From the NCBI GenBank assembly GCA_035710305.1, contig DASTDQ010000142.1:1-58673 (forward strand): a DNA stretch of 58,673 nt, written 5' to 3'. A program made the position numbers and the translations under genes. Below are positions 2,385 to 21,363 of the stretch, piece after piece; within the stretch, counting starts at the first letter, position 1, and every line of letters begins with the position of its first letter. The notes below the pieces were generated by a model. That model made no database searches and had not been told where the DNA came from. It worked only from the letters and a program-made list of their open reading frames with translations. Source of the stretch: Vicinamibacterales bacterium (GTDB lineage: Bacteria > Acidobacteriota > Vicinamibacteria > Vicinamibacterales > UBA2999).

Positions 2385-5300
2385 ATGGCGACCACGACAC
2401 CCTCGCTGACACTGCGCTCGATCCTGGGCCGTGCCGTCTCGCAGGCCAGGCTCGACCAGGGCGCGCCGGTTCTCGCCGGCCTGACAGCCTCGGCAAAGGC
2501 TCTGGCCGCGGCGGGGCTGGCGCGGAGCCGCGGAGGAGTGACGCTGGTCGTCGTCCCAACGGAGGCCGACGTCGAGCGATTCATCGCCGACCTCCGCTTC
2601 TTCTACGCCGGCCTCGAGGCCGCTTCCGATGCGGCCCTTGACCACGCCATCCTGCCCCTGCCCGCCATCCAGGTCGATCCGTATCGGGGAATGACGCCAC
2701 ACTTCCGCGTCGCGGCGGGGCGGGCGCGCGCTCTGCACGCGGCGGCAGCCGGCACGGCACGGGTGATCGTCGCGTCCTCGGCCGCGTTGTTGCCACGCGT
2801 CAGTTCTCCCGCACGTCTGCTGGCCACGTCAGTCGAACTCCGCGTAGGCAGCGAGTGTGAGCCTCAGCGCCTGGCGGATCTGCTGATCGAGGGCGGATTC
2901 ACGAGAGAGGATCCCGTCGACGAACATGGCGCATTCGCCCTTCGCGGCGGCATCGTGGATGTCTTTCCGACAGCCGACGCCGAACCGGTGCGCATCGAGT
3001 TCGTCGGCGACATGGTCGAGACGCTGCGGCGATTCGATCCGTCGACGCAGCGATCGACTGGTGCGATCGATCTGGTCCAGATCGTTCCGGCGCGGGAGCG
3101 GTTCGACGACGACGAGCCGACGTCTGTGATGGAATTCCTCGCTTCCTCGCCGGCGGGCCTGAACCTGATCGTCTCGGAGTACGAGGAGGTTCGGCAGCAG
3201 GCGCTGAAGCTTCGCGAACAACTGCAGCGCAGCTACGAGGAGACGTCCGCACGAGGCCGCCCGGCGGCGGTTCCTCCGGCGCTTGCCTTCACCGATTGGG
3301 AGGATCTCGCGGCACGAACGGCAAAGGCTCTCCGCCTCGAAGAACTGACCATCGCAGACGATGCCGCAGCGCGCCACGTGTCGTGTCAGCCGGCGATCGA
3401 GTTTCGAGGTCGTATCGGAGACTGGGCCGCGGACATCAAGCGCGCCAGGGAGAGCGGTGCAACGGTTCTCGTCGTAGCTGACAGCCCCGGAAAGGCCGAA
3501 CGCAGCGCCGAGATTCTCCGCGACTACGACATCATCGCCGTGCCACTCGACCGGGCGGAGGAGGCACACGCCGGGGCCGTTCTGATCGCCATCGGAGCGC
3601 TGTCGAAGGGGTTTCGACTGGAGGACGCCGACCTCCAGATCTACTCGGAAGCAGATGTCTTCGAGGAAGAGAGGAGGATCACCGAGGGGCGGCGAAGCCT
3701 CTCGAAAACGTTTCTTTCAGACCTGCGCGACCTGAAGGTGGGCGATCTCGTCGTTCACGTCGATCATGGCATCGGAGAATTCGTCGGGCTCAAGCAGCTC
3801 GCGACGGGCAGTCGTTCGACGCCGGCAACGGGAGCAGACCTCCAGGAATTCCTCGAGCTCCGATATCACGGGGACGACAAGCTGTTTGTTCCCGTCGAGC
3901 GCCTTGACCTCATCCAGAAGTACACCGGTGGCTCCCGGCCCGCTCTGGATCGACTGGGCGGAACCACCTGGGAAAAGGCCAAGACGCGAGTCAAGAAGGC
4001 CATGCGGGACATGGCCGAAGAGCTCCTCAAGCTGTACGCGCAACGCAAGGCCATGCCGGGGCACGCCTTCGCCGCCGACACGCATTGGCAGGAGGAATTC
4101 GAAGGCGCATTTCCGTACGAACCCACGCCCGACCAGGCGACCGCCATCGCGGACGTCAAGCGCGACATGGAAACGGCAACGCCCATGGATCGTCTGTTGT
4201 GCGGCGATGTCGGCTACGGCAAGACCGAAGTGGCCATGCGTGCCGCCTTCAAAGCCGTGATGGATGGAAAGCAGGTCGCCTTCCTCGCACCGACGACGGT
4301 CCTGGCGTTTCAGCACCTGAAAACGCTGCGCGATCGATTTGCGGCGTTTCCCGTCACCATCGACATGGTCAGCCGGTTTCGGACCCGGCAGGAAATCAAA
4401 GAGGTCGTCGGGCGTGTCGCCGAAGGCAAGGTCGACATCATTGTCGGGACGCACCGGTTGTTGTCCAAGGACGTGCAATTCAAGGACCTCGGCCTTCTCG
4501 TTGTCGACGAGGAGCAGCGCTTTGGCGTCGTCCACAAGGAACGCATCAAGCAGATGCGCAAGCGCGTCGACGTGTTGACGATGACGGCCACGCCGATTCC
4601 GAGGACGTTGAACATGTCGCTCGTCGGCATCCGCGACATGTCGATCATCGAGACGCCGCCGAAGGACCGGCTGTCGATCCAGACGAACGTCGTGAAGTTC
4701 GACGCCGCCGTTATCGAGCGGGCGATTCGCAACGAGATCGCGCGGGGAGGCCAGGTCTACTTCGTCCACAACCGCGTCGAGTCGATTTTCTCGATTGGCA
4801 ACCTGGTGCAGCGGCTCGTGCCGGAAGCGCGAATCGCGATCGGTCACGGGCAGATGGGGGAAGAAGAACTGGAACGGGCCATGCTGACGTTCGTCGATCG
4901 ACGCTGCGACATCCTGCTGGCGACGACGATCGTCGAAAACGGGCTCGACATTCCGAACGCGAACACCATCATCATCAATCGCGCGGACCGGTACGGGCTC
5001 GCGCAGCTGTACCAACTTCGAGGGCGAGTCGGCCGATCGGATCGCGCCGCGTATGCATACCTCTTGATCCCCCCGCCGGAGTCGCTGTCTCCCGTCGCGC
5101 GCAAGCGGCTCGCGGCAATCAGGGAGTTCAGCGACCTCGGGAGCGGGTTCCGAGTCGCAGCGCTCGACCTGGAGATTCGCGGCGCCGGCAATCTTCTCGG
5201 GGGGGAGCAGAGCGGTCACATCGACGCGGTCGGCTTCGAGATGTACGTGAAGCTGCTCGAAGAGGCGATCCGTCAGCTTCGGGGCGAGGAGCTCGAGGAA

Positions 5301-5912
5301 GAGGCCCGGGCCACCGTCAACCTGCGCATCGACTTGAGGATCGACGACAGTTATATCCCCGATATGAACCAGCGGCTGATGGTCTATCGAAAGGTGGCAT
5401 CGGCCAGGACGGAACCCGAGGTGAATTCCTTGCTGGAGGAGCTCCGGGATCGCTACGGGGCCCCGCCCGAGTCAGTGCTCAACCTCGCCGAGTACGGACG
5501 GACCAGAATCATGGCGGACCGGCTCGAGGTCGATTCAATCGACCGGGAGGGCCGCATGATCGTCATTAGATTCAGGCCCAATGCCCGACTCGATGGACTG
5601 CATCTCGTAAAGGTCGTGAGCGGCTGGCCGGGCGCCACCCTGGTGCCTCCCGTGTCCGTCACGCTGGATCTCGAGGCTGCGCCCGAACCGTCCGCCGAGG
5701 CTCGCCGGGCGGGGCCGAAGAGGGGCGACACCAGTCGAGGTCGTAGTCATGCGGCGCAGGGCAGCTGGTGGACCGCCCGCGCGTTGGCTGGTGAAGTGAA
5801 AGCGGGGTTCAACAAGGCCGAAGTGCTGCGCGTGCCCGAGCGCAGCCCGAGGGCCGAAGACGGTTTGTTCTCGCGCCTCCTGTCGCTGCTTCAGGCGCTC
5901 GACGCCGGGTGA
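2385..5912 (+). CDS. mfd: Transcription-repair coupling factor Mfd
   Basis: 1175 aa. Has a UvrB-homology N-terminus, a CarD-like RNAP-interaction domain (DLKVGDLVVHVDHGIGEF), superfamily-2 helicase motifs (GDVGYGKTEVA, DEEQRFG) and a TRG motif region. Confidence 0.95.
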   Translation: MATTTPSLTLRSILGRAVSQARLDQGAPVLAGLTASAKALAAAGLARSRGGVTLVVVPTEADVERFIADLRFFYAGLEAASDAALDHAILPLPAIQVDPYRGMTPHFRVAAGRARALHAAAAGTARVIVASSAALLPRVSSPARLLATSVELRVGSECEPQRLADLLIEGGFTREDPVDEHGAFALRGGIVDVFPTADAEPVRIEFVGDMVETLRRFDPSTQRSTGAIDLVQIVPARERFDDDEPTSVMEFLASSPAGLNLIVSEYEEVRQQALKLREQLQRSYEETSARGRPAAVPPALAFTDWEDLAARTAKALRLEELTIADDAAARHVSCQPAIEFRGRIGDWAADIKRARESGATVLVVADSPGKAERSAEILRDYDIIAVPLDRAEEAHAGAVLIAIGALSKGFRLEDADLQIYSEADVFEEERRITEGRRSLSKTFLSDLRDLKVGDLVVHVDHGIGEFVGLKQLATGSRSTPATGADLQEFLELRYHGDDKLFVPVERLDLIQKYTGGSRPALDRLGGTTWEKAKTRVKKAMRDMAEELLKLYAQRKAMPGHAFAADTHWQEEFEGAFPYEPTPDQATAIADVKRDMETATPMDRLLCGDVGYGKTEVAMRAAFKAVMDGKQVAFLAPTTVLAFQHLKTLRDRFAAFPVTIDMVSRFRTRQEIKEVVGRVAEGKVDIIVGTHRLLSKDVQFKDLGLLVVDEEQRFGVVHKERIKQMRKRVDVLTMTATPIPRTLNMSLVGIRDMSIIETPPKDRLSIQTNVVKFDAAVIERAIRNEIARGGQVYFVHNRVESIFSIGNLVQRLVPEARIAIGHGQMGEEELERAMLTFVDRRCDILLATTIVENGLDIPNANTIIINRADRYGLAQLYQLRGRVGRSDRAAYAYLLIPPPESLSPVARKRLAAIREFSDLGSGFRVAALDLEIRGAGNLLGGEQSGHIDAVGFEMYVKLLEEAIRQLRGEELEEEARATVNLRIDLRIDDSYIPDMNQRLMVYRKVASARTEPEVNSLLEELRDRYGAPPESVLNLAEYGRTRIMADRLEVDSIDREGRMIVIRFRPNARLDGLHLVKVVSGWPGATLVPPVSVTLDLEAAPEPSAEARRAGPKRGDTSRGRSHAAQGSWWTARALAGEVKAGFNKAEVLRVPERSPRAEDGLFSRLLSLLQALDAG

Positions 5913-9258: not shown

Positions 9259-10860
9259 CTAGTGGGCCCTGCGGCGAGCCAGCGAGCGGACGAGCGAGAC
9301 CATCTGGCCGCGGTCGCTTGCTTGAGCGACCGCTTCGCGCAGTGCGACGTGGCGTCGCGCGACGGCCCGCGCGAGGGATTCGTCAACAGAACGCATCCCG
9401 GGTCCGCCGTCCTGTTGCATGCGCGCGAGCCTGTCGAAGTCGCCTGCCTCCAGCGCCCCGCACACCGCGCTGGTCGCCAGCACGACGTCCTGAACCAGCG
9501 TCCGTCCTCCGCCGATGCGACGAAGGCTGCGATAGCCGATTGCGGCTCTGAACGAGGCGGCCATTGCGCGGCGAACATGAACGTCGGAACCGGACAGCAT
9601 GCGCAACGCATCCACCGTGGTCGATGCGACGACGCCGACGATGACCAGCCGCCCGCCCGCCGCCGCCAGGACGGCTGACTGAAGCGCCTGTTCGGACTGG
9701 AGCCCGGTCACGAGAAGGATATCGGGAGCTTCCTGTGAGGCGCGGCGGATGGCGGCAGCGAAGTCTTTCTCGCTTCCGCTGATCGTTCGCCGGCTCACGA
9801 ACACGCCTGCGATGTCCTCGAGAGAGCGGCTGCGGCGCTGAAGCGAGATCAGGTACCCGCCGCGGTCGCGACTGCTCCAATCAGCCACGGCTGCCGCCAG
9901 CATCTCGACATCGGTCTCGTTCCCCGCCGCCACGACCACGAGACCCTGCGCCTCGCAGGCCAGGCGGATCTGACGCGGGATGTGCTTGTGCAAGAGGCGC
10001 AGCGACGTTGTCGGTCTGAGCTGAACGACGAGCCCCGTGCCGTCCAGGTCGCTGAAGACGCGGCAGCTGACGTAGCCGAACTCCTCGTCTTCGCGGACCC
10101 ACTCACCGTCCGGGCGCGGCTGCCATCGGCCGTCGCCGCCACGAGAGAAGATGTTTGCGACCTCGTCCACCACCGACGCATCGACGATCTCGTCGCTGAC
10201 GGGCTGAATGCGATCGTCGATTCGGGCCGCAGCATTCGAACCGGCGCGGAGAAACATCATGCTCGCGCCGAGATCGGCTGCCTGGCGAATCCACGCGGCA
10301 AGGTCCCGCGGCGGTTCAGGGCGGGACCGCGACTGTCGAACAGGTTCCGGGGTGTAAGACGGAGCGGGTCGCTCTATGTGCCTGACAGGTTCCGGCGGCG
10401 CGAACGGCCTTGCGTCGAAGCGCACCTCAGGCGCCGGTGCGACTGCGATCGGAGGCGCGGCGACAGCTTCGGGTTCGGCAGGCACGAAGACCGGCGGATG
10501 TTCGACGACCGGAATCGCTGGTGCGGGTTCCAGAACAGAAGCCGCGTTGTCAGGAAGCGAGACGATCAACTCGATCGAAAAATCGTCCCCGACGCGCTCG
10601 GCTCGGGCAGTGAGCGGATGGGGAAAAGACTCCGAATGCACCGGTTCGCTGACCACGCCGTTGGCACTCAGTTCCTGACGACCGGCACCAGACAGAATCT
10701 GTTCCGCCAGCGCTTCGACAGCGTTGATAGAGAGGACCGCAGAGGCGACGTCCTGGCGGCGCGCACCGGCGAGTACGTGCGGGCGTTCCCCCGCTCTCAT
10801 CACGAGGCGTTCACCACCTGCGCGTTCGAGTGCTGCGCAGAGCGACGGCATCAGGCTCAT
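9259..10860 (-). CDS. PilT/GspE-family ATPase homolog with all catalytic motifs degenerate (predicted pseudo-ATPase). Two PilT-type N-terminal domains are separated by a Pro/Ala-rich linker.
   Basis: The C-terminal 250 aa align colinearly with PilT (IGGGRTLVQDVVLATSAV, GMRSVDESLARAV). The Walker A GPTGSGKST position reads AAGNETDVE. Walker B/catalytic DIILVGEMRD reads DILLVTGLQS. The His box TGHLVFGTLHT reads GGRLVIVGVVAS. Confidence 0.8.
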   Translation of the reverse strand: MSLMPSLCAALERAGGERLVMRAGERPHVLAGARRQDVASAVLSINAVEALAEQILSGAGRQELSANGVVSEPVHSESFPHPLTARAERVGDDFSIELIVSLPDNAASVLEPAPAIPVVEHPPVFVPAEPEAVAAPPIAVAPAPEVRFDARPFAPPEPVRHIERPAPSYTPEPVRQSRSRPEPPRDLAAWIRQAADLGASMMFLRAGSNAAARIDDRIQPVSDEIVDASVVDEVANIFSRGGDGRWQPRPDGEWVREDEEFGYVSCRVFSDLDGTGLVVQLRPTTSLRLLHKHIPRQIRLACEAQGLVVVAAGNETDVEMLAAAVADWSSRDRGGYLISLQRRSRSLEDIAGVFVSRRTISGSEKDFAAAIRRASQEAPDILLVTGLQSEQALQSAVLAAAGGRLVIVGVVASTTVDALRMLSGSDVHVRRAMAASFRAAIGYRSLRRIGGGRTLVQDVVLATSAVCGALEAGDFDRLARMQQDGGPGMRSVDESLARAVARRHVALREAVAQASDRGQMVSLVRSLARRRAH

Positions 10861-11333
10861 AGGTCAGCGTCCTGCAGAGTAAGCGTGTCTTCGAATTGCA
10901 GCGCCGCCCGAAAAACCGGAGTCGGCGCGACCGCATGCATCGACGAACGTATGACCGTTGCGCGGAGAACCTTGCGCACCCCGCCGTAGCGAAGGAAGAC
11001 GTCCACGGTTCGACCCGGACACAGTCTCTGACTCGTTTCGGCCAGAAGACCGGTAGACGATAGATTCACGAGCCGCATCGGAAAACCGGCGACGGCCAGC
11101 CGTATCTCGACTTTGAACTGATGTGGTTCGCGCCGTGGGGCGCCGCGTCGTTCCTTGCGCTGAGGCGGAGGTTCCGGAACCGGATCCGGCTTTGCCTCTG
11201 CGGGGGACTGAGCTTTGGCCGCGGCAGGGCTCTGCCAGGACGCCTCCAGACCGGCGAAAAGGTCGTCCAGAGACGCCTTCTCGGGAAGCTTGACGACCAT
11301 CTCGTCGTCGGAATCAGAGCCCGGATCGCTCAT
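10857..11333 (-). CDS. PilZ domain protein (c-di-GMP receptor motifs intact) with acidic/Pro-rich N-terminus
   Basis: RxxxR (RGAPR) and (D/N)xSxxG (NLSSTG) motifs are present. Its stop overlaps the start of the downstream pseudo-PilT gene by 4 nt. Confidence 0.8.
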   Translation of the reverse strand: MSDPGSDSDDEMVVKLPEKASLDDLFAGLEASWQSPAAAKAQSPAEAKPDPVPEPPPQRKERRGAPRREPHQFKVEIRLAVAGFPMRLVNLSSTGLLAETSQRLCPGRTVDVFLRYGGVRKVLRATVIRSSMHAVAPTPVFRAALQFEDTLTLQDADL

Positions 11334-11521: not shown

Positions 11522-11887
11522 ATGGCGAAGATCCTAGTCGTCGAAGACGACGATGCGACGCGGGCCGGCTACCGGGAACTCCTGAGCCGGGCAGGGCATG
11601 AGGTTGTCGCCACGGCTACCTACCAGGAAGGGCGGCACGCCGTCGCTACCGAGAGCCCAGACCTCGTGATCGCGGACTTGCGGCTGGGTGGATTCAACGG
11701 ACTCCAGTTATTGCTGCTCAGCCCGCAGCCGATCCCGACGATCATCGTGACCGGGTTTCATGATCAGGTTCTCGAGGCTGAGGCCAGGCGCGCGGGGGCC
11801 GATTACGTCGTCAAACCTGTCTCCCCCTCCAACCTCATGACCCTGGTCCGCGAAAGGCTCGAGAGTCAGGCTGCATCTGGACGCTGA
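11522..11887 (+). CDS. Stand-alone response-regulator receiver (CheY-like)
   Basis: 121 aa. Acidic pocket VEDDD, phospho-acceptor Asp in VIADLRL, conserved T (IIVTG) and K (VVKP). Confidence 0.9.
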   Translation: MAKILVVEDDDATRAGYRELLSRAGHEVVATATYQEGRHAVATESPDLVIADLRLGGFNGLQLLLLSPQPIPTIIVTGFHDQVLEAEARRAGADYVVKPVSPSNLMTLVRERLESQAASGR

Positions 11888-12063
11888 CAAATCTGCGCGC
11901 GGGAACCCGCTACCCTGAGCGCCACGGGAGAGTTCGCTTCCACGCGACATCGAGAACGATGACGCCTCCAAGCGTTAGTCACCCGGAACGCAACCTTTCT
12001 CCGTCTCAAACGCGCCAATCCCCTTTCGTTTGCGGCCTTCTTGGGCCAATCTTGTGCTCTTAC

Positions 12064-12079
12064 TGGCGACTGGCTTGCA
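12064..12079 (+). promoter_or_regulatory. sigma54 (-24/-12) promoter TGGCGACTGGCTTGCA
   Basis: Matches TGGCACG-N4-TTGCW in geometry, with GG at positions 2-3 and TTGCA at positions 12-16. The GC dinucleotide lies 30 nt upstream of the ATG at 12109. Identical at 13/16 positions to the site at 14296. Confidence 0.7.
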
Positions 12080-12108
12080 GGAGTCGAACGGCCACTTCCC
12101 AGCGCTGA

Positions 12109-13815
12109 ATGTCGAGCATCAAGAGTCAGTTACCGGTCGCACAGGAACCGACCCTCTTCGAGGGAGCGGTCCGTGACCGCTCGTGGGAATGGCTGCTCGA
12201 ACTGCGCCGCCGGCTCAAGGTCGAACTGCTGTTGGTGGATGGACGCTGTTCGGTACTGCTGCCCGCGCGGGATCAGGCGGCCCGCCTTCAGGGTCTGCTC
12301 GAACAAACTGAACCGGTCCTGGTGTCTGCCATCAACGCGACGCTGCGCAGCAGGACAGCCCACGTCGTGGAGCTTGGCGGGCTTCAGGCAGTCTGCCTGG
12401 CGATATCACGTGATCGGGGAGACGCCGGGGCACTACTCGTCGGCAGGACCGTTCCGCCGGGGCAGGACCCACGGGCCTCCCGCGATCAGCTCCAACTGGT
12501 TACCTCGTGGTTGGCCACGGCCGTCGAGGCGCACCTTCTCAGCCCGCCGTCGCTTCTTTCGAGTGGCTTGAGTCGAGTCGCTCCCCTGGCCCAGGTGTTC
12601 GGCCAGTGCGCGGAACACGAATCCGATCGCGAGCTCGTTCGACTGTTTGGCGAGGCGGTCGCCGTCTGGCACGACATCGAAGTTTGCGGGTACGTGGAGA
12701 CGTCCAATGGCGGCTTCGCCAGAGATGTGACACTGCCCGGCGCGAACAAGGGCGAAAGGCCCCTGTCGATTTCCGCCGAGGAGTTGCCCGAGGCGACCGA
12801 ACTCACGCGACTTCCTCACGGGCATCTCGACCGATTCGGACTCCCGGTGAGTTGCGACGTTTACGTGAGCCGGTTGGCCCGGGCTGCGGAGCGATCGTGG
12901 CTCCTCGTCTTCATCGGAGCCATTGACGACTACGATCTTCAGCGCCTCGGGGCGTATCTGGCGTTGCTGGAGTTAGCCCTTGCCTTGTCGACGTCGACGA
13001 TGACCACCCGCGTGGTGAACACGATCGGCAGCAGGCTCAGCGACGTTCAGCAGACGCCGGAGATGCGCACCAGGAATGCACTAGAGGAGCTCCGCCGAAC
13101 GCTCGGCGCGTCTTCGGCCGGTCTCAAGATCGAGTCGCCAGACGGGGCGCCCTTGTTCGACGCGCTGAGCCCCGACCTTGCCGACACGTCTCGCGCGGAC
13201 CCAGGTGCGTCGAGACTAGTGCTCGTCAAACGGTCCGAACAGCATTACACTACGACCGTTTCGCTCGGTCGCTATGAGAGTCGGCAGTTCACTCCACGAG
13301 ACTACGCCGTGGCGAGCGCTGCGGCGACCGTATTCGGGCTCTGGGTTCCTGCGACGTTGAGCACCGCTGCGGGTCGGCGCGAACGCCGGGCCCTGCCGCG
13401 CGGGTTTCAAGAAGTAATTGAACGGTCGGCCTGCGAGGCAATCGAACGAGGTGTGCCCGTCGCAGTCGTTGTTCTGCTGATTCGAGATGCCATATCGCTG
13501 CCCGGGTCCACCCAGCGTTGGGTGGCGGGCATTCGGGGTCAAATGAGGGCGTCGGACGTGGCCGGGATGCTGACAGAAGGAGAAATAGGACTCCTGTTGC
13601 ACGACATCGCCAACGAGCAGGCCAAGGCCATCGCCGAACGCCTCAGGACGGTGGTGAGCGGTGCGCCCGGACGGGAGGCGATTCTGATCGGTGTGGCCAG
13701 TTGGACGCCAGGCCAGGACCCGGCCGATGGTATTGTTCGCAGGGCCCGTGCAGATGCACTCGCCGACGGTCGGCGTGCTCAAGTGTCCGTTTCACCTCGC
13801 GGAGTGAACAGCTGA
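12109..13815 (+). CDS. Multi-sensor protein ending in a degenerate GGDEF domain that keeps its RxxD I-site (predicted c-di-GMP receptor, not a cyclase)
   Basis: The C-terminal fold-level pattern is GGDEF-like. The A-site reads TEGEI instead of GG(D/E)EF. RASD sits exactly 5 residues upstream, as in canonical I-sites. The N-terminal about 400 aa looks like tandem GAF/PocR-like sensor modules (weak). Confidence 0.65.
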   Translation: MSSIKSQLPVAQEPTLFEGAVRDRSWEWLLELRRRLKVELLLVDGRCSVLLPARDQAARLQGLLEQTEPVLVSAINATLRSRTAHVVELGGLQAVCLAISRDRGDAGALLVGRTVPPGQDPRASRDQLQLVTSWLATAVEAHLLSPPSLLSSGLSRVAPLAQVFGQCAEHESDRELVRLFGEAVAVWHDIEVCGYVETSNGGFARDVTLPGANKGERPLSISAEELPEATELTRLPHGHLDRFGLPVSCDVYVSRLARAAERSWLLVFIGAIDDYDLQRLGAYLALLELALALSTSTMTTRVVNTIGSRLSDVQQTPEMRTRNALEELRRTLGASSAGLKIESPDGAPLFDALSPDLADTSRADPGASRLVLVKRSEQHYTTTVSLGRYESRQFTPRDYAVASAAATVFGLWVPATLSTAAGRRERRALPRGFQEVIERSACEAIERGVPVAVVVLLIRDAISLPGSTQRWVAGIRGQMRASDVAGMLTEGEIGLLLHDIANEQAKAIAERLRTVVSGAPGREAILIGVASWTPGQDPADGIVRRARADALADGRRAQVSVSPRGVNS

Positions 13816-14132
13816 TGGCGTTGGGGGATCGACGTTCTCGCCTGCGCCTTGAAGTCGTCGGCGCGTTGTGGGCCACGTTGGAGCTGACAGAGCCCGCCCG
13901 GGTGGTGAATATCAGCCGGGATGGGGCGCTGATCACGTCACCCGTCCCAATGACACCAGAGTCGGTCCAGCCGCTTCATCTGAAGCTGGAGGGACGAGAG
14001 GTTACCGTGGATGCACGCGTTCGCCACATCCGTCGTGTGTCCGGACCGGACGAGCCCATCCGGTACCTCGTTGGAGTCGAGTTTCTTACAGTCCCTCCCG
14101 CACTCGCCCGCGCCACGGAATGGCCGTCGTGA
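13815..14132 (+). CDS. Single-domain PilZ protein
   Basis: RxxxR (RSRLR) and NxSxxG (NISRDG) motifs. The ATG overlaps the upstream stop (TGATG). The longer ORF from 13518 is an out-of-frame overlap with the upstream gene. Confidence 0.8.
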   Translation: MALGDRRSRLRLEVVGALWATLELTEPARVVNISRDGALITSPVPMTPESVQPLHLKLEGREVTVDARVRHIRRVSGPDEPIRYLVGVEFLTVPPALARATEWPS

Positions 14133-14295
14133 GACGCCAAAATCGTGTGAGGGAAAGTCTACCGCCTAGAGTGTCTTAGCCCGGACTTGCTCAGACTTTC
14201 TGAGGGGCAGTCTCGAGATCAGAGTCTTCGCGGGCCAGTTCATAAACATCAGAATATAAAAGACTTGCGTCGGCAGACAAACGTCTGCTTGACGA

Positions 14296-14311
14296 TGGCG
14301 ACTCACTTGCA
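14296..14311 (+). promoter_or_regulatory. sigma54 (-24/-12) promoter TGGCGACTCACTTGCA
   Basis: Exact GG-N10-GC geometry with TTGCA. Lies about 65 nt upstream of the PilZ-EBP operon start. It is preceded by an AT-rich tract (14241-14262) and a palindrome (14273-14288). Confidence 0.7.
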
Positions 14312-14377: not shown

Positions 14378-14689
14378 ATGGAGGAACGGCGGCGGACCCC
14401 ACGGCAGCAGGTCGGTGAGGAATTCGCAAATCTGCCAGGGAACATGAGCGTCCGGGTTCTGGACATCAGCACCGTCGGCGTGCTGATTCAGTCCCCCCGC
14501 CTGCTCAACCCGGGATCACGCGGAAGTCTGCGCTTCACGCTTGCCGGAGCACCCTTTGCGGCAGACATTCAAGTTCGGCGCGTGTCCTCGGCGTCCGACA
14601 ACGGATCCGGGTACCGCATTGGTGCGACATTCGTGGGAATGACCATGGATCACCGACAGCTGATTGAACGGTTCATGAACAATGATTGA
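14378..14689 (+). CDS. Single-domain PilZ protein
   Basis: RxxxR (RRTPR) and DxSxxG (DISTVG) motifs. The ATG at 14378 follows a GAGGAG Shine-Dalgarno sequence. An alternative GTG lies at 14360. The 3' end overlaps the EBP start by 8 nt. Confidence 0.8.
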   Translation: MEERRRTPRQQVGEEFANLPGNMSVRVLDISTVGVLIQSPRLLNPGSRGSLRFTLAGAPFAADIQVRRVSSASDNGSGYRIGATFVGMTMDHRQLIERFMNND

Positions 14690-15809
14690 TGGTGTAGCTG
14701 AAAGCAGCACTCGAGTCGGCGCGATTGGCCCGATTGGGGCGATTCGGCCCCGATCTCACGTCCAGCTCACTGGCCGCAGCGCCGAGGTTGTCGCACTCGA
14801 ACAAGAGATCGACCGGGTCGCCCGCTCCGACGCCAAGGTTCTGATCACGGGCGAAAGCGGTGTCGGCAAGGAGATCGTCGCACGCGCGATTCACTCGCGA
14901 GGGCCTCGGTCCGGACACGTGTTTGCGCCGGTCAACTGCGCCGGTCTTCCCGAAACGCTGCTTGAATCCGAACTGTTCGGGCACGTCAAGGGCAGCTTCA
15001 CGGGGGCCTACCGCGACAAGCCTGGCAAGTTGGAAACGGCTCACATGGGTACGATCTTCCTCGACGAAGTCGGGGAGATGACGCTCCGGATGCAGGGCTT
15101 GCTTCTGCGCTTCCTGGAGACGGGTGAGCTTCAGAAGGTTGGAGCCGATGGGAGCGGCCGCATCGTCAACGTTCGCGTCATCGCGGCGACCAACCGTGAT
15201 CTGCGCGACATGATCAAGCAGGGAACCTTCAGAGAGGACCTGTTCTATCGGCTCAACGTCATCCACATCGTTGTGCCACCGCTTCGGGACCGTCGCGAGG
15301 ATATCCCGGTACTCGCGAACCAGTTCCTGTCCCACTTCACGACTGCCGGGCGATCCACGATCACGGGGATTTCCTCGGATGCGATGAAGGCCCTGATCGA
15401 GTACTCGTGGCCGGGTAATGTGCGCGAACTCGAGAACGTCATCGAGCGCCTCGTCGTCACCGTCAGCGGTCCGACGATCGAGACCGAGCATCTCTCATCG
15501 GAGATCAGAGCCTACGATGCCGTAATGCTCCGGCCCAAGCGGGAGCGACGGCGCACCGTGGCCGACGATCTGTACAAGCGCATGCTCGAGCAACACGAAT
15601 CGTTCTGGACGGCCGTGTACCCGCTGTTCATGGACCGCGAGATTACGCGAGCGAACTTGCGCGAGGTCGTCCGCCGCGGCCTCGAGGAAGCGCGGGGCAA
15701 CTACAAGATCGTGGCCCGCCTCTTCAACATGGAGGCGCGCGATTACAAGCGGTTCCTGAACTTCCTCCGGAAACACGACTGCCAGATCCCCTTCAAGGAA
15801 TACCGCTGA
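14682..15809 (+). CDS. sigma54-dependent enhancer-binding protein lacking any receiver/sensor domain (AAA+ core plus C-terminal Fis-like HTH)
   Basis: Walker A GESGVGKE, sigma54-contact loop GSFTGA (variant of GAFTGA), Walker B FLDEVGEM, R-finger region FREDLFYRLN. C-terminus GNYKIVARLFNMEARDYKRFLNFLRKH. Only about 30 aa precede the AAA+ core. Confidence 0.9.
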   Translation: MIDGVAESSTRVGAIGPIGAIRPRSHVQLTGRSAEVVALEQEIDRVARSDAKVLITGESGVGKEIVARAIHSRGPRSGHVFAPVNCAGLPETLLESELFGHVKGSFTGAYRDKPGKLETAHMGTIFLDEVGEMTLRMQGLLLRFLETGELQKVGADGSGRIVNVRVIAATNRDLRDMIKQGTFREDLFYRLNVIHIVVPPLRDRREDIPVLANQFLSHFTTAGRSTITGISSDAMKALIEYSWPGNVRELENVIERLVVTVSGPTIETEHLSSEIRAYDAVMLRPKRERRRTVADDLYKRMLEQHESFWTAVYPLFMDREITRANLREVVRRGLEEARGNYKIVARLFNMEARDYKRFLNFLRKHDCQIPFKEYR

Positions 15810-16003: not shown

Positions 16004-17536
16004 GTGACAAGGGACTCCCAAAGAGGGACCCAATTTCTGCCTGACGGAGGACTTCATCGGCTGATGCCGTCTCATGAAGCCGGCCCTGGCAGTCGTCACC
16101 TGTCCGAAGGGCAGCGCCAGTTGCTCCTCGAGCTGCACCTCAAAATCGACCGTACGTCCCCACCGCGTGAATTCCTCCGTGGGCTCGTCAACGCAATCAG
16201 CGAAGCCCTGCAGACGACCGTAGCAGTGGTCGGACGGAACGGAGATGTCTGGGTGCGAGCGGCCGCGTCGGGCCCCGCCACCCCGCGTCTGCCACTTCAG
16301 TCCGAGGGTTGGCCTCAGATCTTCGACCGCCTGAGCGCGACGGCAGGCGCACAGCTGGAGCTCTGGCGCACCGGAAGTGAGGATTGGACCTTGTTCGGAC
16401 TGGCAAGGGCGCCCCATACGCCGGTGATTCTCATTCTCGAAGGGGACTGGACGCATTGGGCCGCTGTCCTTCAACAGATGGCACAAGGTCTGTCGATCGG
16501 GGATGTCCGTGACCTCTCGCAAGCACGGCCGCTCGACAGCATCCTCCAGCGACTGTCGCACGCACTCGCCGACACTGTGGGGTTGGCCGAAGTCGGCGAA
16601 GTCGTGCTTCGGCATGTGATTCAAGCCGTGCCGAGTCGGCTGGCTTCCTTGGCGTCCGCAGCCCCCGACGGCGAACTCTCAATCGTGGCCACCCAGGGCT
16701 ATCCGCGCGAACTGGTCCAGCACCTTCGAATCGCGTCCGGCAACGGCGTGATAGGAGCAGTCCACCTCTCCAGGACACCGTTGGTCGTCTCAGACGTGTC
16801 GCTGACCCCGGGCCTTGACCGTCATCGGTCGAGGTATCGATCCAACTCGTTTGTGGCGGTTCCAATCGTAGCGGGGTCCGAAACGCTTGGCGTCGTATCG
16901 CTGACCGACCGAGTCGCCTCGGGCCCCTATACGCAGGGAGACGTCGCGGCAATCACCGTGTTGATGGGTCCGGCTGCGCTTGCGCTGGCGCGCGAACGCG
17001 TCAGACAGGAGGCCCTCGCCTACGCGCAGGCAGCCGTCGTCGACCCAGTGAGTGGCCTGTTCAACCGCCGGTATTTCGAGGCGCGTCTCGACGAGGAATT
17101 ACACCGCGCGGTTCGTCAGCTCACGTCCGTGGCGCTCTTGATGGTAGACCTGGATGAGTTCAAGGCGGTGAACGATCGCTTCGGACACATCGCCGGCGAC
17201 CTGGTGATTCGGGACATTTCGGAGATTCTTCGCCGGTCGGTGCGTATTTTCGATGTCTGCACGCGGTTCGGGGGCGAGGAGTTCGCGGTGATGATGCCCG
17301 GCGGCACCGTTGAAAGCGCAAGCGCAATTGCCGAGCGCATCCGCCATAGGGTTGAGGCTTATCAGCGGAACGAGCCGAGCTTGGCGGGACTACACGTCAC
17401 CGCGAGTATCGGCGTCGCGGTGTCTCCCCCCGGTGTTACTGCCCGAGACCTTATGGAACGGGCAGATCGTGCGCTCTACCATGCGAAGAAGGCTGGCAAG
17501 AATCGCGTCAGTACCGCCGGCACAGACCCGGTCTGA
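16004..17536 (+). CDS. GAF-domain diguanylate cyclase (GGDEF)
   Basis: Intact GGEEF A-site with an RIFD I-site 5 residues upstream. A GAF-like region (VPIVAGSETLGVVSLTD) precedes it. Confidence 0.9.
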   Translation: MTRDSQRGTQFLPDGGLHRLMPSHEAGPGSRHLSEGQRQLLLELHLKIDRTSPPREFLRGLVNAISEALQTTVAVVGRNGDVWVRAAASGPATPRLPLQSEGWPQIFDRLSATAGAQLELWRTGSEDWTLFGLARAPHTPVILILEGDWTHWAAVLQQMAQGLSIGDVRDLSQARPLDSILQRLSHALADTVGLAEVGEVVLRHVIQAVPSRLASLASAAPDGELSIVATQGYPRELVQHLRIASGNGVIGAVHLSRTPLVVSDVSLTPGLDRHRSRYRSNSFVAVPIVAGSETLGVVSLTDRVASGPYTQGDVAAITVLMGPAALALARERVRQEALAYAQAAVVDPVSGLFNRRYFEARLDEELHRAVRQLTSVALLMVDLDEFKAVNDRFGHIAGDLVIRDISEILRRSVRIFDVCTRFGGEEFAVMMPGGTVESASAIAERIRHRVEAYQRNEPSLAGLHVTASIGVAVSPPGVTARDLMERADRALYHAKKAGKNRVSTAGTDPV

Positions 17537-17904: not shown

Positions 17905-19098
17905 ATGTCGACACTTTCTCTACCCCGAATGCCGAAAAACCTGCCACTGCTGCTCGGCGAGAGTCCAGCCATCAGCTCTCTGCGACGTGAAATCGAGGCG
18001 GCGGCCAGGACCGACGCGAAAGTCCTCGTTCTCGGCGAAACGGGATCGGGCAAGGAAGTCGTCGCGCGACTGATTCACGAGCAGAGTGGACGTTCGTCGC
18101 GCGCGTTTGTCGCTGTCAACTGCAGCGGCATCCCTGAGACCCTCCTCGAATCCGAGCTGTTCGGTCACACACGAGGCAGCTTCACGGGCGCTTACCGCGA
18201 CAAGCCAGGGCTGGTGCGGCAAGCCGACAGAGGCACGCTGTTCCTCGACGAGCTCGGAGAGATGAGTCTCAGGATGCAGGCAGTCCTGCTGAGATTCGCC
18301 GAGACTGGCGAGATCCAGACGATCGGCGTCGACGGTGTGACGGGTCGTTCCGACGTGCGCCTCATCACGGCGACGAACCGAAACCTTCGCGAGCGGATCG
18401 ATGCTGGCGTGTTCCGCGAGGACCTGTACTTCAGGCTCAACATCATTCAGATTCATGTCCCGCCCCTGCGCGAACGAACCGAGGACGTGATGCTGCTGCT
18501 GCGTCATTACCTGCGCAGAGCCAGCGAGACGCATCGCCTCGCGTATCCGGAGTTGACGCTGGACGCCGAGCAGGTGCTCGCCTCGTATGCCTGGCCAGGC
18601 AACGTTCGCGAACTGAAGAACCTCGCGGAGCGCTTGGTCGTGCGCGAGTGGGATCGCGCCATTGGCGCCAACGATCTTCCTGCCGAGATCCGTGGAGGGC
18701 GCGACACTGTCTCGACCTCGCCGAGCTCCAGCGTGACGTTCAATCAGGACAGCGTGCCTACCGCGCGACGGCTCGAGCGAGGCTCCGGAACAGCCGATCG
18801 CTTGTGGGAACGTCTGATCGCGGGCGAGAGCTTCTGGACCGTTGTACACCAGCCGTTCAAAGCGCACGAACTCACGCGGGATGACCTCGCCGCTTTGATT
18901 CATCGCGGGCTCGAGCACACGAGAGGAAGCTATCGTGCTCTGCTCGGCGTGTTCGGTCTCCCGCCGACGGACTACAAGCGCTTCCACGCGTTCTTGTATC
19001 AGCAGAACTGCAACTTGCCTGTTGGACCGTATCGCACCGCGAGAGCAACACTGCGCCGGCAAGATCGGCCCGCGTCGGTGTACACACCGGCCTGCTGA
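17905..19098 (+). CDS. sigma54-dependent enhancer-binding protein, receiver-less paralog of 14682-15809
   Basis: GETGSGKE, GSFTGAYRDKPG (identical loop context to the paralog), FLDELGEM. Shares the C-terminal ESFWT...DYKRF...N motif block. GGAG lies 10 nt before the ATG. Confidence 0.9.
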   Translation: MSTLSLPRMPKNLPLLLGESPAISSLRREIEAAARTDAKVLVLGETGSGKEVVARLIHEQSGRSSRAFVAVNCSGIPETLLESELFGHTRGSFTGAYRDKPGLVRQADRGTLFLDELGEMSLRMQAVLLRFAETGEIQTIGVDGVTGRSDVRLITATNRNLRERIDAGVFREDLYFRLNIIQIHVPPLRERTEDVMLLLRHYLRRASETHRLAYPELTLDAEQVLASYAWPGNVRELKNLAERLVVREWDRAIGANDLPAEIRGGRDTVSTSPSSSVTFNQDSVPTARRLERGSGTADRLWERLIAGESFWTVVHQPFKAHELTRDDLAALIHRGLEHTRGSYRALLGVFGLPPTDYKRFHAFLYQQNCNLPVGPYRTARATLRRQDRPASVYTPAC

Positions 19099-19956: not shown

Positions 19957-21363
19957 TCAGTCGGGTCCGATCCTCTTCAACTTCTCCACCAGCGTCGTCC
20001 TCTTGATGCGCAGCAACTCGGCGGCGCGATTCCGATTTCCACCGGTGCGGTCGAGTGCGCGCCCGATCAAGTCACGCTCGACGGCGGCGAGGTAGGCCGG
20101 CATGTCCATCCCTCCTTCCGGAAAGTCCACGAGGGGCATGGCCGTTGCCGGGGGGGTCACCTGGATTTCGGCAGGCAGGTCCGCCATTTCAATATGCTGC
20201 CGTCCCGCGCTCAGGGCCACCGCCCGCTCGACAGCGTTTTCCAGCTGACGGACGTTCCCGGGCCACTGATAGGCCATCAACGCACGCATCGCATCCTGCG
20301 ATACCTGCATCTGCGACCCGGGCGCAAACTTCTGCAGGAAGTGCTGCGCGAGAACCGGGATGTCATCGCGCCTGTCCCGCAATGGTGGCAAGTGAATGGG
20401 AATCACGTGAAGTCGGTAGTAGAGATCTTCCCGGAACGTTCCTTCGGCGACCATTCGCGCAAGGTCAGAATTGGTGGCTGCGATGACCCGCACATCCACC
20501 TTGATCGTCTGGTTGTCACCGACCCGCTCGAACTCGCGCTCCTGGAGTGCGCGGAGCAGCTTCATCTGAAGAGCGGTACTCATGGTCCCGACTTCGTCGA
20601 GGAAGAGCGTCCCCTTGTGGGCCTGCTCGAAGCGTCCCTGACGTGCGCCGATCGCGCCCGTGAAGGCCCCGCGCACGTGCCCGAAGAGTTCAGCCTCGAG
20701 CAGAGTCTCGGGTATCGCGCTGCAGTTCAAGGCGACGAATCGATGTGCGCGGCGAGGGCTGTTGTGGTGAATCGCTCTCGCCACGACCTCCTTGCCGGTT
20801 CCCGTCTCTCCGGTGATCAGGATCGTGCTGCTGGATCGCGCCACCGTCTCCAGAAGATGAAACAGCTTCTGCATTGGCCGGCTGCGGCCGAGGATGCCGC
20901 CGAACTGGTAGCGGTCCTCGAGCTGTGAACGGAGGTACGCGTTTTCCGATCGGAGCCGCCGATCTTCAAGCGCCTTGTGCAGCACGTGCGAGAGCTCGTC
21001 GAACTGAAAGGGCTTGGCGATGAAATCCGATGCGCCCCGCTTGATGGCGTCGACCGCGTCCTTGACGGTGCCGAAGCCTGTAATGACGATGGCCACGATG
21101 CCGGGGTAGCGCTCTCGAGCGGACTCGATAACCCTGGACCCATTGACTCCGGGCAGCCTCAAGTCCGTAATCACCACGTCGAACGCAAACTTCTCCAGGA
21201 GCTCCAGCGCCCGTTCTCCGCTTTCGGCCTGAACGACCTCGAAGCCACGCTCGGTCAGGCGTTCGGCCATGACCCCGCGAAGCGCGGTTTCGTCGTCCAC
21301 GAACAGGATATGGGGGATGGTTCCGGCGGCAGCCACAGCGCCAATATCTTGACACAGCCCCAA
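19957..21363 (-). CDS. NtrC-family response regulator (REC + sigma54 AAA+ + Fis HTH)
   Basis: Receiver ILFVDDE...VITDLRLPG, GETGTGKE, canonical GAFTGA, and C-terminal HTH GGNRNRAAELLRIKRTTLVEKLKR. The start could be TTG 21363 or GTG 21336. Confidence 0.9.
   Translation of the reverse strand: MGLCQDIGAVAAAGTIPHILFVDDETALRGVMAERLTERGFEVVQAESGERALELLEKFAFDVVITDLRLPGVNGSRVIESARERYPGIVAIVITGFGTVKDAVDAIKRGASDFIAKPFQFDELSHVLHKALEDRRLRSENAYLRSQLEDRYQFGGILGRSRPMQKLFHLLETVARSSSTILITGETGTGKEVVARAIHHNSPRRAHRFVALNCSAIPETLLEAELFGHVRGAFTGAIGARQGRFEQAHKGTLFLDEVGTMSTALQMKLLRALQEREFERVGDNQTIKVDVRVIAATNSDLARMVAEGTFREDLYYRLHVIPIHLPPLRDRRDDIPVLAQHFLQKFAPGSQMQVSQDAMRALMAYQWPGNVRQLENAVERAVALSAGRQHIEMADLPAEIQVTPPATAMPLVDFPEGGMDMPAYLAAVERDLIGRALDRTGGNRNRAAELLRIKRTTLVEKLKRIGPD

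Follow-up and report, generated by a model that had tools for sequence, protein, structure and literature searches.

Degenerate GGDEF domains that read cyclic di-GMP (c-di-GMP) at an inhibitory site (I-site) have been described in a few proteins, namely PelD, SgmT, BcsE and PopA, the last being a receptor of this kind from Caulobacter. The I-site of the diguanylate cyclase PleD consists of R359 and D362 of an RxxD motif together with R390 (PMC7288161), and in PelD the residues R367, D370 and R402 are indispensable to the reading of c-di-GMP (PMC8461298). Here we describe a 568-residue protein (working name X568; open reading frame 12109-13815, plus strand) that is encoded on contig DASTDQ010000142.1 of an uncultured Vicinamibacterales bacterium (Acidobacteriota), a stretch of 58,673 nt that is referred to as the window and to which all position numbers refer. 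A first-pass annotation had proposed that two types of c-di-GMP receptor, a GGDEF-derived one in X568 and a PilZ protein, are made together with a stand-alone receiver from one sigma54-driven unit. The receptor signature on a GGDEF fold, the coupling to PilZ and a conserved promoter all hold, and the receiver falls outside the unit. We consider it reasonably probable that X568 is a sensor with a dead GGDEF domain that reads c-di-GMP at its I-site, is coupled to PilZ and is driven by sigma54; that it binds the nucleotide, which activator is involved and what its output is are what we infer.

Single-sequence searches failed, and the C-terminal domain of X568 was revealed only by family profiles and structure prediction. 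X568 gave no Pfam match in a single-sequence scan, phmmer found no match to its sequence in the PDB, and of the NCBIfam models four cyclase families were touched at E ∼4e-3 only. A profile of 85 diverse members of the X568 family (24-86% identical to the window protein; the same members underlie the conservation counts below) retrieved 25 PDB sequences at E<0.1, all of them GGDEF domains with alignments that span the entire domain, the best scores being those of 3IGN (4.6e-8), WspR (1.3e-6) and PleD (5e-3). When the C-terminal pieces were scanned singly, 27/35 matched Pfam GGDEF, 11/35 GGDEF_2 and 2/35 PelD_GGDEF, most of them under the curated cut-off. The AlphaFold 2 (AF2) model of residues 422-568 (predicted local distance difference test, pLDDT, 87; predicted template modelling score, pTM, 0.81) was compared with the PDB by Foldseek, and GGDEF domains made up 50 of the 50 matches listed, with template modelling scores on the query of 0.59-0.71 and a probability of 1.00. 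Profile and predicted structure indicate that the C-terminal ∼140 residues are a genuine GGDEF domain, though an extremely diverged one. The C-terminus had been called GGDEF-like on first inspection, and both the profile search and the structure prediction give this fold; because the profile matches and the listed Foldseek matches are all GGDEF domains, a domain of some other fold, which had been named as the result that would count against the proposal, was not what was found. The protein ends 8 residues past this domain and no EAL domain is present.

RASD and TEGEI occupy residues 480-483 and 489-493 of X568 with exactly five residues between them, and the same spacing is confirmed for the two cyclases of the window (RIFD-5-GGEEF and RGSD-5-GGDEF), both as originally claimed. 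In a three-way alignment of the C-terminal domains RASD falls on RIFD/RGSD, TEGEI on the GGEEF/GGDEF columns, and AERLR of X568 on AERIR of the GAF-GGDEF protein of the window. At the active site (A-site) the motif GG[DE]EF is found in 0/85 members and at least 60 variants of the pentapeptide exist, with an acidic residue (E/D) at motif position 4 in 81/85. A gap of 9 residues in the family relative to WspR, seen in a hidden Markov model alignment, removes the GHVAGDEA stretch, and a gap of 10-12 residues relative to the two cyclases of the window falls at GHxxGD; the gapped region is the guanine-binding segment (the N335/D344 region of PleD). With no GG(D/E)EF motif and this segment deleted, diguanylate cyclase chemistry is, as judged by alignment, irreversibly lost in X568. 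At the I-site, R480 and R511 are each arginine in 85/85 members, position 483 holds D in 79 members and E in the other 6, and R476 is retained in 84/85. Spacing is equally strict: D483 precedes the A-site position by five residues in 85/85, a register between RxxD and A-site that is fixed beyond what chance would give, and 30 residues intervene between R480 and R511 (+31) in 85/85, identical to the +31 of R390 from R359 in PleD. Only three columns are invariant in the whole 568-residue alignment, namely W187, R480 and R511. X568 thus has the appearance of an eroded enzyme in which no part of the protein is under stronger purifying selection than the I-site pocket, as expected of a GGDEF domain turned receptor, and the PelD/PopA-type signature that had been claimed for it, a dead A-site with a strongly conserved I-site, extends across all 85 members. 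In the linker directly before the GGDEF domain, a near-invariant E-R-R is found at residues 425-427 (nt 13381-13389; R426 in 77/85, R427 in 78/85); R426 and R427 lie outside the canonical I-site and could give a bound nucleotide an extra arginine, comparable with R161 of PelD.

The full-length AF2 model of X568 (pLDDT 88, pTM 0.65) places three α/β domains (approximately residues 16-145, 154-310 and 317-421), linked by long helices, ahead of the GGDEF domain. Foldseek ranks highest for it the phytochrome cyclase 5LLW, of PAS-GAF-PHY-GGDEF architecture (E 4e-14), DosP and tandem-GAF proteins, the last being phytochromes and PDE2/5/6, and Pfam GAF_3 is matched in 3/85 members. Neither the AF2 secondary structure nor the sequence of X568 contains a transmembrane segment. 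According to the model, X568 is a soluble cytoplasmic sensor that carries three GAF-like domains and ends in a GGDEF tail of the receptor type. The GAF-like domains had escaped the first-pass annotation.

The stop codon of X568 (TGA, 13813-15) shares bases with the ATG (13815-17) of a PilZ gene, the TGATG overlap that had been noted at the outset. The 105-residue product scores 32.4 bits with Pfam PilZ against a cut-off of 22.5, and its motifs RRSRLR (RxxxR) and NISRDG ((D/N)xSxxG) are conserved in all relatives. A TGATG or TAATG overlap is present in 14/14 close relatives with an intact X568 gene, the gene of the 15th (L036) being frameshifted. Among five distant loci (28-35% identity) the overlap recurs in L015 and L018, is ambiguous in L016 and is replaced by gaps of ∼15-30 nt in L014 and L017. 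Because the stop/start overlap is conserved, it argues for translational coupling of X568 and PilZ, which probably form a stoichiometric complex. The TGATG overlap also occurs with a product other than PilZ: in P0250 it is shared with a gene for a 115-residue protein without recognisable PilZ motifs, and in a 25%-identical member (L039, 5677-6024) the overlapping downstream gene encodes a 115-residue protein with neither PilZ motifs nor a Pfam match.

The sigma54 candidate that had been claimed upstream of X568, hereafter P1, shows exact -24 GG/-12 GC spacing and lies 30 nt before the X568 ATG. The string TGGC-N7-TTGCW occurs twice in the window where 0.6 occurrences are expected: one copy, at 12064, precedes X568, and the other, at 14296 (P2), precedes an operon of a second PilZ gene and a sensor-less sigma54 activator. 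The two elements are nearly identical (Table 1). Both P1 and P2 recur at corresponding places in 19/19 related loci that carry the cassette, although the intergenic DNA around P1 has diverged there, including four at ∼30% X568 identity in which the remaining intergenic DNA is unalignable. A sigma54 element also precedes the X568 homologue in three of five distant members (L039, L040 and L043; 25-34% identity) and is absent upstream of it in L041 and L042. The genome encodes RpoN (Sigma54_DBD 220.6 bits), and the stretches between the genes yielded neither a terminator-like nor a sigma70-like site. The X568-PilZ unit is half of a conserved two-promoter cassette, the other half being the operon of PilZ and sensor-less activator, an arrangement that the first-pass annotation had missed. 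The activator, whose gene lies 870 nt downstream of X568, is 88-94% identical across close relatives and lacks an N-terminal regulatory domain; most likely it is this protein that fires both P1 and P2.

In contrast to the arrangement first proposed, the receiver gene lies upstream of P1, 177 nt away, and no sigma54-type element precedes it, even with the looser pattern TGG-N9-TGCW. An extra pair of PilZ and sensor-less activator genes separates the receiver from the X568 gene in 9/15 close relatives, and the receiver is not adjacent in the four distant cassette loci with an upstream flank (L014-L016, L018). Membership of the receiver in the sigma54 operon was rejected since it is upstream of P1 and separable from X568 in relatives; it is a neighbour that has been conserved and may be the receiver that the sensor-less activators lack. 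The extra pair, which the window does not have, is located at ∼4100-5700 (locus coordinates) in L024, L029-L034, L036 and L037, and the combination of receiver, PilZ and AAA-HTH (helix-turn-helix) protein resembles a split NtrC-type regulator.

Table 1. Coordinates of the X568 cassette and its neighbours in the window
Feature	Position	Strand	Basis or remark
PilT-like gene	9259-10860	-	
PilZ gene next to PilT-like gene	10857-11333	-	
Stand-alone CheY-like receiver, 121 aa	11522-11887	+	Pfam Response_reg E 3.4e-18; D52, T, K signature residues visible in translation
Candidate sigma54 promoter P1, TGGCGACTGGCTTGCA, -24 GG / -12 GC	12064-12079	+	Match to TGGC-N7-TTGCW
X568: three GAF/PAS-like domains, then degenerate GGDEF	12109-13815	+	AF2 model, Foldseek, family profile
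Three tandem GAF/PAS-like domains of X568	12154-13371	+	DSSP of AF2 model, Foldseek
Degenerate GGDEF domain of X568, ∼residues 425-560	13381-13788	+	Profile against PDB, Foldseek
I-site RxxD, R480-A-S-D483	13546-13557	+	Aligns with WspR RSSD and 3IGN RQSD
A-site remnant TEGEI, residues 489-493	13573-13587	+	Aligned to GGEEF of WspR, 3IGN and window cyclases
R511, third I-site arginine	13639-13641	+	Aligns with R of ERIRE (3IGN) and AERIR (window GAF-GGDEF)
PilZ protein, 105 aa, coupled to X568	13815-14132	+	Pfam PilZ 32.4 bits
Palindrome GCAGACAAACGTCTGC, 8 nt upstream of P2 -24 box	14273-14288	no strand	Candidate regulator/activator site
Candidate sigma54 promoter P2, TGGCGACTCACTTGCA	14296-14311	+	Near-identical to P1
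Second PilZ gene	14378-14689	+	Pfam PilZ E 4.2e-12; overlaps activator gene
Sensor-less sigma54 activator: AAA+ with C-terminal HTH	14682-15809	+	Sigma54_activat E 2e-64, from residue 30
GAF-GGDEF diguanylate cyclase, RIFD-5-GGEEF, active-looking	16004-17536	+	GGDEF E 1.8e-44, GAF_2 E 2.7e-12
Second sensor-less sigma54 activator, AAA+ from outset, without sensor or receiver domain	17905-19098		
Complete NtrC-type regulator (third sigma54 activator)	19957-21363	-	

Several observations weigh against the view of X568 as a sigma54-driven, PilZ-coupled reader of c-di-GMP. RxxD-bearing GGDEF domains are not all c-di-GMP binders, and that of X568 is heavily eroded, with a deletion of 9-12 residues and, for the window protein, a Pfam GGDEF score of 16.2 bits that stays under the gathering cut-off of 23.8. 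The sigma54 string is not enriched in the 5.48-Mb genome (54 copies against ∼69 expected from base composition), three sigma54 activators, each of them possible for P1, are encoded within 10 kb, and some distant members of the family (L041, L042, L019-L021) have neither the PilZ partner nor the sigma54 motif. Any argument from motif strength was dropped on the genome-wide count, and the promoter call carries weight because its position and conservation, not the motif string, exceed chance; the PilZ partner and the sigma54 motif, being absent together from some distant members, define a subfamily and not the whole family. A domain that binds no nucleotide at all and serves for dimerisation or docking (e.g. 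of PilZ or an activator), with the R/D/R residues engaged in structural or interface salt bridges, would sit well with the erosion and with the general background that many degenerate GGDEF domains are scaffolds. We hold it to be doubtful, with a small but real share of the probability, as RxxD is no requirement of the fold and one window cyclase has N at the R390-equivalent position, which X568 does not, whereas the I-site residues of X568 are the most conserved of its 568, keep their spacing in every member, and match one-for-one the c-di-GMP-binding residues of PleD and PelD.

Were the pocket to bind another nucleotide, such as pGpG, guanosine tetra- or pentaphosphate ((p)ppGpp), cyclic GMP-AMP (cGAMP) or guanosine triphosphate (GTP), the arginines outside the canonical triad (R476 and the near-invariant R426 and R427) might be accounted for, and PleD with c-di-GMP and (p)ppGpp (9G85, 9G86) is indeed among the structural matches, in keeping with the ability of GGDEF proteins to bind other guanine nucleotides. 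R-x-x-D plus R is nevertheless the canonical geometry of a (c-di-GMP)2 site, c-di-GMP parts abound at the locus and the GTP-binding A-site is destroyed, so that we find such a ligand quite improbable. It is hardly conceivable that X568 has remained a diguanylate cyclase, if a weak one, by way of an unorthodox active site: the acidic residue kept at motif position 4 and the activity that rare non-canonical motifs such as AGDEF can have, according to one report (PMC3974145), stand against the absence of both glycines and of the third acidic residue, an A-site pentapeptide that is hypervariable across the family, and the deletion of the segment that holds the guanine-recognising residues. Residual cyclase activity was rejected.

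Under the preferred reading, in which X568 reads c-di-GMP at its I-site, the transcript would begin at P1, most probably fired by the adjacent sensor-less activator, whose own PilZ-activator operon would be under the near-identical P2, and the stop/start overlap would keep X568 in a fixed ratio to a canonical PilZ receptor. C-di-GMP, perhaps made by the syntenic GAF-GGDEF cyclase, would bind both the PilZ partner and the I-site of X568 (R480-x-x-D483 and R511, probably aided by R476), the latter in a PelD-like manner and probably as an intercalated dimer. Such binding may move the GGDEF domain with respect to the GAF spine, and the output would probably be protein-protein control by X568/PilZ within the c-di-GMP/sigma54 island. 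A bolder version, suggested because the X568 family is recurrently associated with sensor-less activators, would make X568, with or without PilZ, the detachable sensory module of the neighbouring activator, with the I-site reading c-di-GMP, the GAF-like domains a second ligand, and both gating in trans an activator that drives both promoters. We regard this as unlikely though conceivable; if true, it would amount to a c-di-GMP-controlled feedback circuit like PspA-PspF or NifL-NifA, built from two types of c-di-GMP receptor.

The island itself holds three PilZ genes and one GAF-GGDEF cyclase, with a second cyclase ∼11 kb downstream. The GAF-GGDEF gene is syntenic in all close relatives and directly adjoins X568 homologues in L019, L022 and L042, which makes it a possible local source of c-di-GMP; downstream of it the region goes on with more sigma54 activators, genes for a sigma factor and for a hybrid kinase, and another GGDEF cyclase. 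The second PilZ reading frame is listed from GTG 14360, and the ATG at 14378 (MEERRR) is conserved in all relatives and gives a 103-residue protein. Upstream of P2, the palindrome GCAGACAAACGTCTGC, perfect over 16 nt, is conserved in 15/15 close relatives and recognisable in 3/4 distant loci; the genome has no further exact copy, and a regulon could not be defined. Relatives carry its half-site GGCAGACAAA ∼105 nt upstream of P1 as TTTTGTCTGCC, where the window reads TTAGTCACC. Conserved blocks at 14150-14205, ∼100-145 nt upstream of P2, hold an inverted repeat (GAAAGTCT, 14153-14160; AGACTTTC, 14193-14200) at a distance typical of the enhancer (upstream activating sequence) for a sigma54 activator.

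Database searches returned 206 close homologues of X568 at E≤0.001 (57-100% identity among the 120 matches listed), to which 'hypothetical protein' is the sole name given by any source, and an exhaustive profile search yielded 183 clusters (50% identity) at E<1e-30, nearly all of 530-590 residues. The family occurs in 8/301 genomes of an order-wide sample, and in a phylum-wide sample of 201 genomes a full-length homologue was found nowhere outside the genome of origin. Gene order varies among distant members: the cassette X-PilZ-PilZ-activator is complete in P0135 (34% identity), the homologue is followed by a GAF-GGDEF cyclase in P0205, L019 and L022, and in P0233 its neighbours are two sensor-less activators and a Wza-like exporter, between which it lies. 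A 27%-identical homologue on a metagenome contig (L043, 2560-7571) has two sensor-less sigma54 activators at its flanks, and after it comes a gene for Wza-like polysaccharide export, a neighbourhood that hints at an exopolysaccharide output. Many homologue gene models of 600-605 residues (P0007, P0016-P0018 and others) begin ∼36 codons too early, upstream of the promoter, and translate the sigma54 element GCTGGCTTGCAG as 'AAGLQ'. These public models are, by this comparison, over-extended, and the present analysis corrects database gene models that run through a sigma54 promoter.

PleD, WspR and 3IGN-type cyclases share with X568 the fold, the RxxD followed by five residues to the A-site and the third arginine at +31, but these are active enzymes that use the I-site for product inhibition, whereas in X568 the I-site alone is left and the enzyme is gone. 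SgmT of Myxococcus (PMC3509222) and BcsE of E. coli (PMC8461298) use a degenerate GGDEF domain, similar to that of X568, as a receptor that takes up c-di-GMP at the I-site. The N-terminal modules differ from those of X568, PopA having REC-REC, SgmT a histidine kinase and BcsE its own N-terminal domain. To our knowledge none of PopA, SgmT and BcsE is coupled to PilZ in translation or driven by sigma54. Complexes of a small PilZ protein with a c-di-GMP receptor that contains a degenerate GGDEF domain are described for FimX-PilZ-PilB and for Filp-PilZX3 of Xanthomonas (PMC6637768), and a pair of PilT-like ATPase and PilZ likewise lies next to the X568 locus. In those complexes, however, it is the degenerate EAL domain to which c-di-GMP binds, and their PilZ partner is non-binding and degenerate, whereas the PilZ partner of X568 has intact RxxxR and NxSxxG motifs and we infer the complex from gene coupling alone; a FimX-type mechanism was rejected in view of the missing EAL domain. 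PspA-PspF and NifL-NifA, in turn, provide sensor-less sigma54 activators that are controlled in trans by a partner whose own gene is sigma54-driven, an arrangement of feedback to which X568 has no sequence relationship and in which contact of X568 or PilZ with the activator would be hypothetical.

PelD of Pseudomonas aeruginosa, in which GAF likewise precedes a catalytically dead GGDEF domain, is the closest architectural analogue, and the triad through which it reads c-di-GMP (PMC8461298) corresponds to R480, D483 and R511 of X568. PelD differs in its four transmembrane helices, single GAF domain and pel polysaccharide operon, whereas X568 is predicted to be soluble, with three GAF/PAS-like domains and a GGDEF core that has been shortened, and is accompanied by PilZ and sigma54 parts. 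No pel genes were found near X568, the neighbours being PilZ, sigma54 activator, GAF-GGDEF and receiver genes, and orthology to PelD was rejected on this ground together with the lack of a transmembrane segment and the few members that touch PelD_GGDEF. With no feature of the family more conserved than the I-site, X568 offers a clean natural case of enzyme-to-receptor conversion, from the poorly studied soil order Vicinamibacterales, and the combination of PilZ coupling, sigma54 promoter and adjoining PilZ/activator operon represents a testable wiring by which c-di-GMP might reach sigma54 transcription in Acidobacteria. The principle is already known from PelD and its like; to the I-site receptors X568 would add a new architecture, an unannotated family that counts 183 or more clusters (50% identity), and a pairing with PilZ and sigma54.

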